DNA from: a virus
Taxonomy: Duplodnaviria; Heunggongvirae; Uroviricota; Caudoviricetes
Reading direction: 5' to 3' (one strand)
DNA: 6,052 nucleotides
IMG/VR virus record: IMGVR_UViG_2651869755_000005
Both the position numbers and the translations under genes were made by a program. Below, piece by piece: positions 2,968 through 6,008 of the stretch. Numbering within the stretch: position 1 is the first letter of the stretch; each line of letters begins with the position of its first letter. The notes under the pieces were generated by a model, which saw only the letters and a program-made list of their open reading frames with translations, did no database searches and was not told the DNA's origin.

Positions 2968-3052
2968 AGTCAGAGATAACAATCAACTAATACTGTTTTG
3001 TTGATTTTTGCTTGTAATTGGCGTTCTGGTCTGATTTTTGTGGAGTAAGTTG

Positions 3053-3436
3053 ATGCGTGATATTCAGATGGTTCTTGAGCGTTGGGGTGCGTGGGCGGCT
3101 AATAATCATGAAGATGTGACCTGGTCGTCCATTGCCGCCGGTTTTAAGGGATTAATTCCTTCAAAAGTAAAATCTCGCCCGCAATGTTGTGACGATGACG
3201 CGATGATCATTTGCGGGTGCATGGCCCGTCTGAAAAAGAACAACAGCGATTTACACGATTTATTAGTAGATTATTATGTATGTGGTATGACATTCATGTC
3301 ACTGGCAAGTAAGCATTGCTGCTCGGATGGTTATATCGGGAAAAGGTTACAGAAGGCTGAGGGCATAATTGAAGGGATGTTAATGGCATTAGATATCCGG
3401 TTAGATATGGATATCGTTGCTAATAATTCTAATTGA
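3053..3436 (+). CDS. quuD: Q-family late-gene antiterminator (QuuD-like), 127 aa
   Basis: [31 protein letters not shown]...[16 protein letters not shown]... matches DLP12 QuuD in length and sequence as I recall it; ATG 3053 with GGAG SD at 3042..3045. Track start 3038 (TTG) rejected. Confidence 0.88.
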
Positions 3437-3454
3437 TATGCAATTGTTTACTAA

Positions 3455-3486
3455 AAGTTATTAAAAATGGGGCGTGGAAACGCCCC
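3455..3486 (-). terminator. Candidate rho-independent terminator on the - strand (likely nmpC terminator)
   Basis: Stem GGGGCG (3469..3474) / CGCCCC (3481..3486) with loop TGGAAA; on the - strand the hairpin is followed by ATTTTTAATAACTT (complement of 3455..3468). Confidence 0.5.
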
Positions 3487-3573
3487 CAAAATAAAGGGTA
3501 ATATATAACAGAAGGTTTATATAGTAAGAAGCAAGGTAGTGCTTCTAAAGGAAGTGGCTTGAGGGCTCCACTT

Positions 3574-3613
3574 ATATGTTGCGGAGGCAAAGCCTCCCGC
3601 AACATATCTTTTT
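3574..3613 (+). terminator. Strong rho-independent terminator on the + strand downstream of quuD
   Basis: About 14-bp stem ATATGTTGCGGAGG / CCTCCCGCAACATAT (one bulged C), loop CAAAG, followed by CTTTTT (3608..3613). The - strand side lacks a T-tract, so it is + strand specific. Confidence 0.6.
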
Positions 3614-3624
3614 CGTAAGTCAGA

Positions 3625-4707
3625 TTAGAACTGATAAACCAGACCTACAGCGACGATGTCGTCGGTATCAATACCAGCTGTTTTGGTAAACTTACTATCG
3701 TCAATTAAGTTGATTTTGTAATCAACAAAAGTAGACATGTTTTTATTAAAGTAGTAAGTAGCACCGACATCGACATACTTGACTAAGTCTCGGTCACCAT
3801 GAACACCAAGGTCTTTACCTTTTGACTGAAGGTAAGCAACAGATGGGCGCAGACCGAAGTCAAACTGATATTGTGCTACTGCTTCAAAGTTTTGTGCTTT
3901 GTTTGCAATATGGTTATTACCAAAAACGGTCATATTCTGAGTTTCAGAATATGTGGTAGCCAGATAGATATTGTTCGCATCATATTTCAGGCCTGCAGCC
4001 CATACTTCCGCATTTTTGCCGGAGGCATTGAATTTGCTCTTACCATAGGCGACCTGACCGTCAGTGCGATCTGATTTAGCATAGGTTGCACCCACGCCGA
4101 ATCCTTCATACTCATAAGTAGTGGAGAAACCGAAACCATCACCATTGGCTTCAGTTACGTCAGTGCGGTCATTTTTACCCTGATACTGAGCAGCAAAGTT
4201 CAGGCCATCGACCAGACCAAAGAAGTCGTTGTTACGATAAGTTGCAACACCAGTAGTGCGACCAGTCATGAACACATCTGTTTGGGTCCAGGTATCACCA
4301 CCGAATTCTGGCAGAACGTCAGTCCACGCACCGATGTCGTATGCTACACCGTAGTTACGGCCGTAATCGATGGAGCCGTAATCACCAAATTTCAGGCCTG
4401 CAAATGCAAGACGGGTTTTGTCTTTGGAAGAACCTTGAGATTCAGCACGGTTGCCTTTGAATTCATATTCCCACTGACCGAAACCAGTCAGTTGATCGTT
4501 GATTTGGGTTTCACCTTTGAAGCCAAGACGGGCATAAGTAGTATCACCATCATCTGCATCATTAGAGGAGAAGTAGTGCTTGGCATTAACTTTCCCGTAT
4601 AGATCCAGCTTGTTACTGTCTTTATTATAAATTTCAGCTGCCTGAGCAGACATCGCCATCAGTACTGATGCAGCTACAGCAGAAATTGCCACTGTTAATT
4701 TTTTCAT
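3625..4707 (-). CDS. nmpC: Outer-membrane general porin of the OmpC/OmpF/PhoE family (NmpC-like), apparently intact, with signal peptide
   Basis: Signal peptide [23 protein letters not shown] then [16 protein letters not shown]...; C-terminal ...VGLVYQF with terminal Phe typical of beta-barrel OMPs. Start ATG (complement of 4705..4707) chosen over the track's upstream Met (4767) because of the signal peptide and an AAGGG SD. Position and orientation between quuD and essD match DLP12 nmpC. Confidence 0.9.
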
Positions 4708-4990
4708 TGTACGCCCTTTTTTTGAACTATTATTAAAAAATGATGTCACTGCGCGATAAATATTCATCTAATCAATGTGATTATTTCAAGATGTAAGTTT
4801 TAGTTTCTCATTTAATTTGTGAAGTAGATCTCTATTTTTATCTGAACCTTTTCTATCTAATCCTATTCATGGCTCTTGTCTGAACAAAAATAAATCTATT
4901 AGCTAATTTATATTAATGGCACTTATTTATAAGTGCTCTATAATTCTTTAGCTTAATTTAAACAAACTAAAAATAACATCGGAAATTATT
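4708..4990 (-). promoter_or_regulatory. AT-rich upstream/5' leader region of the porin gene (promoter not mapped)
   Basis: Long AT-rich non-coding stretch upstream of the porin start, containing an 18-bp inverted repeat (4919..4936) and several TCTAT/ATCTA repeats; porin genes usually carry long regulated leaders. No -35/-10 pair is assigned with confidence. Confidence 0.4.
4919..4936. repeat. Perfect inverted repeat GCACTTAT-TT-ATAAGTGC (8-bp arms, 2-bp spacer)
   Basis: Read directly from the sequence; arms are exact reverse complements. Candidate dimeric regulator operator, about 215 bp upstream of the porin start codon. Confidence 0.5.
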
Positions 4991-5133
4991 AACTGATTAT
5001 TTGTTGAAGTTTTCTTATGTATTTGTGGTGGTGTTTTGAACACTCGGTGGCATTCTCACAAATATCATTTAGTAGTTTACGTACGTAAAAAATTGGTTAT
5101 GCTGTTAAGAGTGGTTACTTCGTCACACAGCTT

Positions 5134-5166
5134 AAACCCGCCGTCGAGCGGGTTTTTCCATTTTTT
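5134..5166 (+). terminator. Rho-independent terminator on the + strand about 130 bp upstream of essD (candidate tR'-like late terminator)
   Basis: Stem AAACCCGC (5134..5141) / GCGGGTTT (5148..5155), loop CGTCGA, followed by TTCCATTTTTT (to 5166). The - strand side has only a 3-T run. Confidence 0.65.
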
Positions 5167-5295
5167 GAGTCTCGATATTAGCTGATAACCCAATACCTGA
5201 GTTATTCACTGACTCCGAATCTGTTACGTTTCTGCCTTTATTGCGATACGTAATATCCCCTTAATTTACACCCGCTTTGTCTGCGAGGTGGGGTT

Positions 5296-5511
5296 ATGAA
5301 ATCCATGGATAAGTTAACAACGGGTGTCGCCTATGGCACCTCAGCAGGTAGTGCCGGTTACTGGTTTTTACAGCTGCTCGATAAAGTCACGCCCTCACAG
5401 TGGGCAGCAATAGGTGTGCTGGGTAGCCTGGTATTTGGCCTGCTGACGTACCTGACAAACCTTTATTTCAAGATTAAAGAAGATAAGCGCAAGGCTGCGA
5501 GAGGTGAATAA
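5296..5511 (+). CDS. essD: Holin, phage 21 S-like pinholin (EssD-like), 71 aa, with dual-start motif
   Basis: [71 protein letters not shown] resembles DLP12 EssD / S21 as I recall them; Met1-Lys2-Ser3-Met4 gives the two-start holin/antiholin arrangement; GAGGTGGGG SD upstream; two hydrophobic segments. Confidence 0.9.
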
Positions 5512-6008
5512 TGCCTCCATCATTACGAAAAGCCGTTGCTGCTGCTATTGGTGGCGGAGCAATTGCTATAGCATCAGTGTTAATCACTGGCCCAAGTGGT
5601 AACGATGGTCTGGAAGGTGTCAGCTACATACCATACAAAGATATTGTTGGTGTATGGACTGTATGTCACGGGCATACAGGAAAAGACATCATGCTCGGTA
5701 AAACGTATACCAAAGCAGAATGCAAAGCCCTCCTGAATAAAGACCTTGCCACGGTCGCCAGACAAATTAACCCGTACATCAAAGTCGATATACCGGAAAC
5801 AATGCGCGGCGCTCTTTACTCATTCGTTTACAACGTGGGTGCTGGCAATTTCAGAACATCGACGCTTCTTCGCAAAATAAACCAGGGCGATATCAAAGGC
5901 GCATGTGATCAGCTACGTCGCTGGACATATGCTGGCGGTAAGCAATGGAAAGGTCTCATGACTCGTCGTGAGATTGAGCGTGAAATCTGTTTGTGGGGTC
6001 AGCAATGA
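5511..6008 (+). CDS. rrrD: Phage lysozyme with N-terminal signal-anchor-release (SAR) domain (RrrD/R21-like), 165 aa
   Basis: N-terminal Gly/Ala-rich weakly hydrophobic segment [20 protein letters not shown] followed by a lysozyme domain (...[16 protein letters not shown]...); start overlaps the essD stop (TAATG); pairing with a pinholin is the phage 21 arrangement. Confidence 0.9.

Follow-up and report, generated by a model that had tools for sequence, protein, structure and literature searches.

A porin gene inserted between the antiterminator and lysis genes of a lambdoid prophage

The window, i.e. the whole 6,052-nucleotide stretch of DNA analysed here, was recognised from its gene calls as the nin-to-lysis segment of a lambdoid E. 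coli prophage, which carries the following genes:

762-1220: NinB
1157-1744: Dam methylase
1878-2261: NinX
2468-2830: RusA
3038-3436: antiterminator Q (Pfam PF06530, E = 7.7e-54)
3625-4707, minus strand: porin of the nmpC/lc/ompD type
5296-5511: holin, S21-type
5511-6008: lysozyme

The gap between the porin and holin genes is strikingly AT-rich, as the original prediction had judged by eye: GC contents of 0.24-0.27 were determined in 200-nt stretches over 4701-5100 versus 0.36-0.57 elsewhere, and that of 4768-5130, the interval first proposed as a divergent control region, is 28.1%. Judged by sequence identity, this gap is the intergenic region that lies between nmpC/lc and essD in lambdoid prophages. 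Escherichia phage 2G7b and an E. coli NCTC86 prophage match the segment 4700-5300 with 100% identity, and a match is present in about 3,280 of the 5,426 E. coli genomes that are complete. Orthologous DNA with 90-92% identity over the same segment was found in the PA-2 lc region (GenBank J02580; Blasband, Marcotte and Schnaitman 1986), in the nmpC-essD region of the K-12 prophage DLP12 and in phage 434. PA-2 and DLP12 have the gene order of the window, Q - porin(-) - holin(+), and are identical to it from 5076 to 5200, whereas in K-12 and 434, unlike the window, an IS5 sits in the porin gene and 17 bp are deleted at 5233-5249. The porin gene is an extra gene ('moron') inserted in a lambdoid prophage before the phage lysis genes. 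No Rfam family matched anywhere in the window at E ≤ 1.

All start-site and protein-binding data used below come from the K-12 or Stx-phage counterparts rather than from the present haplotype. The K-12 counterpart of the region is 90% identical to this haplotype, and the about 10% of positions that differ lie mostly in 4900-5060.

The left edge carries a porin promoter with a probable CRP link

Four features were located at the left edge of the gap:

4708-4753, minus strand: porin 5′ UTR, with start codon ATG at 4707-4705 and transcription start near 4752 (±1)
4760-4789, minus strand: porin sigma-70 promoter, with -35 TTGAAA at 4789-4784, -10 GAATAT at 4765-4760 and an 18-bp spacer
4815-4836, unstranded: CRP site, with core TGTGA-AGTAGA-TCTCT at 4818-4833
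4728-4740, plus strand: opposing promoter, with -10 TATTAT at 4728-4733 and start A4740

The proposal that this DNA controls the porin gene is supported, with the K-12 transcription start, conserved promoter hexamers and a CRP site all upstream of the porin, while its left boundary needs to be moved. The porin starts at ATG 4707 (MKKLTVA...) and not at 4767, as the PA-2 lc annotation indicates, together with the signal peptide and the K-12 transcription start, which maps downstream of 4767. The promoter core therefore lies to the left of the earlier boundary; with the longest open reading frame, the porin start is placed 60 bp off and the real promoter is hidden by it. In the K-12 SMRT-Cappable-seq data, a reverse-strand start at 576,870 is assigned to the operon of b0553 and b0552 (PMC6131387 supplement). 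Mapped to the window through the alignment with K-12 and NC_000913.3 coordinates, and allowing for the one-base offset of that table from Cappable-seq at two shared starts, this K-12 start falls at 4752 ±1, which leaves a 5′ UTR of about 45 nt.

The TGTGA-N6-TCTCT at 4818-4833 is the sole 8/10 match to TGTGA-N6-TCACA within the window, with 3/5 matches in its right half, and its centre is about 73.5 bp upstream of the porin start, a distance good to ±1-2 bp. Class I CRP sites are centred near -61.5, -72.5 or -82.5, and a site at -73.5, as placed by the alignment, is of class I geometry. The least variable 20-mer of the region, 4823-4842 (diversity 0.001), contains part of the CRP site. A CRP site is annotated at the counterpart of 4818-4833 in the PA-2 record J02580, is placed identically in K-12 DLP12, and nmpC is listed among the known CRP targets and was retrieved by genomic SELEX as well (PMC3105977). 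CRP, which had earlier been named merely for motif scanning, thus has published support as a documented specific regulator of the nmpC/lc porin.

Alignment with chromosomal ompD orthologues, comprising Salmonella arizonae, three Citrobacter, several Enterobacter species, Lelliottia, Huaxiibacter and Klebsiella spallanzanii, showed that the -35 and -10 hexamers and the CRP half-site have been conserved in 10 genera or species, and the porin promoter hexamers are among the least variable stretches in the relatives of the window as well; besides these hexamers and the CRP site, no conserved blocks were seen in either alignment. Chromosomal ompD (Salmonella, Citrobacter, Enterobacter) has a GATCACA half-site, a -35 and a -10 in the same order as here, with the -35 within AAACTTAnnnnTTGAA(A/C). 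It differs in its -10 (TAAAAT versus GAATAT), in a CRP-to--35 distance about 9 bp longer than in the porin insert and in a longer 5′ UTR (about 70 nt, compared with about 45 nt here), and it has nothing in common with the window upstream of the CRP site. An ompD-type sigma-70 promoter at the left edge would thus read leftward into the porin gene, and CRP bound about 73 bp upstream would activate it, as homology, annotation and the K-12 data suggest.

The porin is homologous to OmpC and OmpF, and an OmpR-dependent promoter of the ompF/ompC kind could accordingly be imagined, its OmpR boxes lying within the AT-rich DNA. The -35 region CTTACATCTTGAAATAATCA (minus strand, 4797-4778) presumably resembles the ompC C1 box, a lead that we count for such control. 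This stretch, however, is the -35 element itself and aligns with the ompD promoters, no conserved tandem boxes were found upstream of the -35 in the alignments of relatives and of ompD, and the documented regulator is CRP. NmpC was, moreover, reportedly first found by Pugsley and Schnaitman in 1978 as a porin that ompB (ompR/envZ) mutants produce, and this speaks against OmpR control. On this indirect evidence, dependence on OmpR, which the original prediction had named beside H-NS, is highly improbable and does not share the published support for CRP and H-NS control; a CRP-activated sigma-70 promoter is preferred.

The same edge would also give a transcript in the opposite direction. A strong plus-strand Cappable-seq start of K-12 (U00096.2:576,081, relative read score 90) corresponds to A4740 of the window, seven bases past TATTAT; it faces the porin start, with a transcript overlap of about 13 nt, and has no entry in the K-12 SMRT-Cappable-seq operon table (PMC6131387 supplement). 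An RNA from 4740 may run across the AT-rich region as an unannotated transcript, which could compete with or regulate the porin promoter. An 18-codon leaderless open reading frame beginning at 4740 is not proposed as a gene, because it is truncated in an 81%-identical prophage remnant.

The AT-rich spacer corresponds to an H-NS-bound promoter island of K-12

Between the CRP site and the right edge lies one further element:

4850-5070, unstranded: variable AT-rich spacer of the porin insert, K-12 'promoter island' 576129_354 (nmpC/essD)

This spacer is the most variable part of the locus in the alignment of relatives and has no counterpart upstream of chromosomal ompD. The low GC content (0.24-0.28) lies within the porin insert, which is missing in other phages with the same PR′ module.

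Panyukov and Ozoline (2013, PMC3661553) list the K-12 island 576129_354, between nmpC(-) and essD(+), among their 78 promoter islands, describe it as horizontally acquired and give it the score 'A', i.e. H-NS-bound in all compiled ChIP-chip studies. It maps to about 4788-5140 of the window, which is almost exactly the interval of the original prediction, and this binding of the K-12 counterpart lends support to the H-NS control that had been suggested (PMC3661553). The motif scan did not add to it: the Lang high-affinity H-NS motif is not enriched, with 1 site versus 1.4 expected. Likewise, a consensus promoter scan yielded 1 site in 3400-5400, fewer than the 5.8 ± 2.5 of shuffled sequences, so that the label 'promoter island' rests here on the published PlatProm analysis. 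The high density of predicted starts that marks the K-12 promoter islands was not reproduced in the window, with the reservation that the predictors differ, PlatProm for the islands and a simple consensus scan for the window. By analogy with K-12, H-NS likely coats the porin control region, and the AT-rich 200 bp upstream of the porin promoter would most likely serve as an H-NS platform that silences acquired DNA.

The inverted repeat at 4919-4936 is a variant of one haplotype

Two overlapping features within the spacer were analysed for a regulatory role:

4919-4936, unstranded: inverted repeat GCACTTAT-TT-ATAAGTGC, a haplotype-specific variant
4916-4944, plus strand: promoter-like site ATGGCA-17-TATAAT, overlapping the inverted repeat

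An 18-bp perfect palindrome had been singled out here as a good candidate operator for a dimeric regulator. Its coordinates stand and two perfect 8-bp arms are present; since the central TT is non-symmetric, it is not strictly a perfect 18-mer. When the 363-bp region was shuffled 2000 times with its dinucleotides preserved, 14% of the shuffles contained an inverted repeat as good or better (arms ≥ 8 bp, spacer ≤ 10), so the repeat does not exceed chance (p = 0.14).

The palindrome is not conserved among relatives. In PA-2, K-12 DLP12 and 434, the left arm is GCTGTTAT, which leaves two mismatches; PA-2 and DLP12 have TG at 4921-4922, and the AC of the present haplotype completes the palindrome. 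Among 122 homologous IMG/VR loci, the perfect symmetry (GCAC left arm) occurs in just 17, while the left arm is of the GCTG type in 86 and of the GTTG type in most of the remainder; that is, about 86% of the related phage loci have a different left arm, mostly GCTGTTAT or GTTGTTAT. As these loci were retrieved with the right arm as anchor, right-arm variation is undercounted among them, a gap filled by two comparisons independent of this anchor: the 81%-identical prophage remnant has GGTTGTTATTTATGATTGAC and E. albertii has GAGCATAAATACCTGTAATT at the palindrome position, both asymmetric and with neither arm kept. In a 70-sequence non-redundant alignment, the left-arm stretch 4903-4922 is a local diversity peak. 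The perfect palindrome, furthermore, always co-occurs with a block of other substitutions in 4946-5000, by which the present haplotype also differs from PA-2 and DLP12, and this constant company marks it as a haplotype marker rather than a selected site.

What speaks for an operator, bound by a dimeric host or phage regulator of the porin or of the divergent transcript, is the presence of two perfect arms between two divergent promoters, together with the right arm and the adjoining TCTATAAT being fairly well kept in E. coli prophage copies. Against it stand the rare symmetry, the degeneration of both arms in the remnant and in E. albertii, the diversity peak at the left arm, the frequency of such repeats in shuffles and the absence of the element upstream of chromosomal ompD. 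The palindrome is also remote from the porin and PR′ starts, at about 175 and 180 bp respectively, and from both mapped promoters, at about 170-190 bp, which is beyond the normal operator range, and none of the listed K-12 plus-strand Cappable-seq starts is adjacent to its counterpart. An operator is therefore very unlikely here, and a functional palindrome is the least likely of the open readings.

The haplotype that carries the palindrome could alternatively make or strengthen a plus-strand sigma-70 promoter at 4916-4944, giving a ∼210-nt RNA from ∼4951 to the terminator at 5134-5160, across PR′. This site is the sole consensus match in 3400-5400 (10/12), and the T-to-A change at 4921, which completes the palindrome, also improves the -35, the first hexamer in K-12 being the weaker ACGGCT instead of ATGGCA; AT-rich H-NS-bound islands are, besides, known for cryptic promoters (PMC3661553). 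Even so, the -35 is still poor (4/6), no plus-strand Cappable-seq start is listed at the K-12 counterpart, no conserved structure or Rfam family lies downstream, and the predicted transcript would cover the most variable part of the locus. We consider such a promoter improbable, and the palindrome is in all likelihood an incidental feature of one haplotype with no sign of function. What catches the eye here is thus to be corrected to a haplotype accident.

The short direct repeats that had been reported beside the palindrome hold in part. TCTAT has four copies (4831, 4852, 4895 and 4937) versus 1.24 expected (p about 0.016), an enrichment that is weak evidence because the motif was picked after looking at the sequence, while ATCTA has two copies, which is not significant. 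The TCTAT repeats are, with good confidence, incidental to the AT-rich sequence of one haplotype. A long imperfect inverted repeat (4777-4806/4964-4993) and four short direct repeats (D1-D4) were put down to chance in AT-rich DNA, as K-12 and PA-2 do not keep the ATCTAATC repeat intact. The majority palindrome variant (CTGT-N8-AGTG) was also considered as a LexA-like site and discarded, with a match in a single half-site.

The right edge carries the late promoter PR′ and a leader terminator

The following features were identified at the right edge:

5076-5110, plus strand: late promoter PR′, with -35 TTTACG at 5076-5081, -10 TATGCT at 5098-5103 and start A5110
5077-5088, plus strand: dyad TTACGTACGTAA, followed by an A-tract to 5092, a probable Q-binding element
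5104-5122, plus strand: near-invariant block GTTAAGAGTGGTTACTTCG, covering the start and the initially transcribed region
5134-5160, plus strand: intrinsic terminator (tR′-type), with an 8-bp stem AAACCCGC/GCGGGTTT, a 6-nt loop CGTCGA and a short U run

TTTACG and TATGCT are 16 bp apart, and A5110 is seven bases past TATGCT. The Stx-phage PR′ start was mapped by dRNA-seq to 258 nt before the tR′ 3′ end (Sy et al. 2020, PMC7547250); in Stx2 phage II this start is A1538, seven bases past TATCAT, and the homologous base here is A5110. In K-12, the plus-strand Cappable-seq start U00096.2:576,452, a weak one (score 1.7), maps exactly to 5110. The start at 5110 is thus backed, through alignment, by two independent datasets, both on orthologues.

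A 'lysis-gene terminator' had been placed at 5134-5160. The hairpin is real by terminator scan and RNA folding and is conserved in Stx phages, SfII and many IMG/VR phages, whereas its assignment to a lysis gene does not hold: it occupies +25 to +51 of the PR′ transcript, about 135 nt before the holin gene, and is therefore a leader terminator of the tR′ type. The 'terminator' thus belongs to a promoter-terminator cassette that had been overlooked. The Term-seq 3′-end tables of Adams et al. (2021) list nothing close to the K-12 terminator, nor anything for essD/nmpC, so that its use in vivo is putative. As a separate observation, the right 60 bp of the AT-rich region, whose content had been missed, is PR′ with a putative Q-loading site.

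In SfII and many IMG/VR phages, a near-identical version of the segment 5073-5157 precedes the lysis genes; 933W-type Stx phages have one of 78% identity, located right where the Q gene ends. In the latter, the identity runs from the -35 to the first hairpin of PR′-tR′, the source of the StxS small RNA, their Q is about 75% identical to that of the window, and their mapped PR′ start is at the base homologous to A5110. They differ past the first hairpin, where the similarity stops, the 258-nt leader and the 74-nt StxS part both being missing in the window, and at the dyad centre, which is GATC in Stx phages versus GTAC here.

Phages that differ in Q clade and in upstream insert share the block 5104-5122, which probably holds a sigma-dependent pause element. 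Within its invariant GAGTGGTTACTTCG at +1 to +13, the best -10-like hexamers, TACTTC and TTACTT, are without a key base; the Stx-phage hexamer TACATT fits a -10-like pause element better. A second 'CRP site' of the PA-2 record (5110-5130) was rejected, as it is below the 8/10 consensus and represents +1 to +21 of PR′, a block also kept in porin-less phages.

The arrangement was further compared with the phage 21 cassette (Yin et al. 2019; OL657228), whose Q is of the same Pfam family (PF06530) and a distant relative of the window Q (PDB 6P18, E = 4e-8). In phage 21, QBEu and QBEd fill the 16-bp promoter spacer, and the candidate dyad of the window is in the equivalent place; the start is 7 nt after the -10, as here; the pause element is at +2 to +8; the terminator, annotated at +2 to +50, ends near +50, as here; and an S21-type holin and a SAR endolysin follow downstream, as in the window. 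On the other side, the phage 21 promoter has no DNA similarity to PR′ of the window, its element is a direct repeat (ATTGAGCA, AATGAGCA) versus a candidate inverted repeat plus A-tract here, and its Q abuts PR′, whereas a 1.65-kb porin insert lies between them here.

A composite region described before in its parts

The region is very probably a composite of three parts, i.e. a porin promoter on the minus strand, a variable AT-rich spacer and the late promoter PR′. At its right end, RNA polymerase would start at 5110 and, without Q, would stop at the 5134-5160 hairpin; within the promoter spacer, the dyad and A-tract are the probable docking place of Q (3038-3436, Q21/933W family), which would then load onto the paused polymerase, leading to read-through into the holin and endolysin genes. 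The DLP12 lysis operon is stated, in one account (PMC7918800), to be controlled by its Q, RpoE and Hha.

The observed features are real but ordinary. The locus is the long-known lc/nmpC regulatory region, adjoined by a Q-dependent late promoter of the usual kind, and everything of substance has been reported before for its counterparts in PA-2, DLP12, phage 21 or Stx phages; the analysis matters little as a discovery and is useful as a correction.

The dyad in the PR′ spacer partitions with the Q clade

By the shared invariant block around the start, GTTAAGAGTGGTTAC, 217 loci were collected. Their upstream similarity ends at about -38, with many unrelated sequences beyond. At -34 to -18, the position of the phage 21 QBE, a dyad and A-tract were found in discrete types: one with TTACGTACGTAA here and TTACGATCGTAA in Stx phages, and GCGTACGC, GCGGTCCGC and TGTTATAACA in other clades. 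Every dyad type has a Q clade of its own, although the remainder of the module is common to all, and Q identities are 69-100% within a dyad type versus 39-67% between distinct dyad cores; the variants TTACGTACGTAA and TTACAATCGTAA belong to one Q clade (Q identity 79-85%). Because the dyad type partitions with the Q clade while the module is shared, the dyad fits as a specificity element, and TTACGTACGTAA plus the A-tract is probably the Q-binding element, for which we propose it as the candidate.

It is a tentative possibility, taken jointly, that, within the Q21 family, Q proteins of the 933W/DLP12 branch bind an inverted repeat with A-tract in the PR′ spacer instead of the direct repeat of Q21, and that the head-to-head RNA from 4740 is regulatory. 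If true, a swap of the ∼12-bp dyad would change Q specificity in an otherwise near-identical pause/terminator module. We have not found inverted-repeat recognition by Q of this branch described, and it may already be known.

The SfII gene between Q and PR′ was considered as a second porin and dismissed, having no similarity. The distance from Q to PR′ is 0.6-2.9 kb in most sampled loci, the insert being the 1.65-kb porin unit in the window, so insertion of extra genes at this junction is common. With the Q-PR′ junction as a recurrent insertion point, annotation pipelines that seek PR′ beside Q will miss it.

A dyad in the PR′ spacer covaries with the Q clade

Comparison of the related loci L127-L221 revealed that the spacer between the −35 and −10 elements of the Q-dependent late promoter PR′ carries a short inverted repeat followed by an A-tract (window 5077-5092), and that this dyad falls into discrete types, i.e. 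TTACGTACGTAA, TTACGATCGTAA, GCGTACGC, GCGGTCCGC and TGTTATAACA. Each dyad type was accompanied by a single clade of the antiterminator Q, whereas the types share both their start-proximal block and their terminator. Judged from these sequences, the dyad with its A-tract is probably the element bound by Q, although the candidate is an inverted repeat whereas the Q-binding element of phage 21 is a direct repeat. In one related prophage, L048 (IMGVR_UViG_2627853732_000001), an apparent IS1 end (…CAGTAAGTTGGCAGCATCACC) was found between the PR′ −35 and −10, at about the equivalent of window 5088; such an IS1-like insertion would cut the late genes off from both the PR′ promoter and the Q site.

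Recurrent insertion between Q and PR′

The stretch from the Q stop codon to PR′ (window 3437-5072) has received insertions repeatedly. In most phages sampled, Q and PR′ were 0.6-2.9 kb apart and the inserts differed, such as the porin gene in the window and an unrelated minus-strand gene of 340 aa in SfII. By contrast, the Q reading frame of 933W-type Stx phages extends into the PR′ dyad, and that of phage 21 stops just upstream of the PR′ −35.

The PR′ leader differs among relatives

K-12 DLP12 and phage 434 are 17 bp shorter in the PR′ leader (window 5233-5249), downstream of the terminator and upstream of the holin start, which leaves a small inverted repeat (5224-5232/5245-5253) with a single arm. 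A hairpin equivalent to the promoter-proximal one is retained in Stx phages; together with its 7-U run it occupies about +24 to +49 (1561-1586 in L004, Stx2 phage II). Because the published Stx-phage PR′ transcript extends over 258 nt to a second terminator (PMC7547250), this first hairpin may terminate inefficiently, which, if true, bears on the tightness of the window terminator 5134-5160.

Flanks of the porin gene

Elements located around the porin gene:
3486-3469, minus strand, terminator-like hairpin GGGGCGTTTCCACGCCCC within the Q-porin gap (3437-3625)
about 3577-3609, second, GC-rich inverted repeat TTGCGGAGGCAAAGCCTCCCGCAA immediately beyond the porin stop codon
4728-4733, plus strand, promoter −10 TATTAT upstream of the K-12-mapped start A4740

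The small RNA IpeX has been reported at the nmpC 3′-end in K-12; Rfam returned no match in the entire window (E ≤ 1). Cappable-seq data of the K-12 counterpart, mapped to the window, placed a strong plus-strand start at the A4740 equivalent (score 90). This start faces the minus-strand porin start near 4752 head-to-head, so that the two promoters overlap and ∼13 nt are common to both RNAs. The plus-strand transcript, which opens with an 18-codon ORF, would traverse the entire AT-rich region.

A copy of the porin upstream region, 81% identical to window 4700-5036, was found in E. coli USMARC-49610 (L006 3001-3337, at 2.027 Mb). Unannotated, and having neither the porin gene nor PR′, it adjoins emrE-ybcL-ybcM near fliE and is a decayed DLP12-like remnant.
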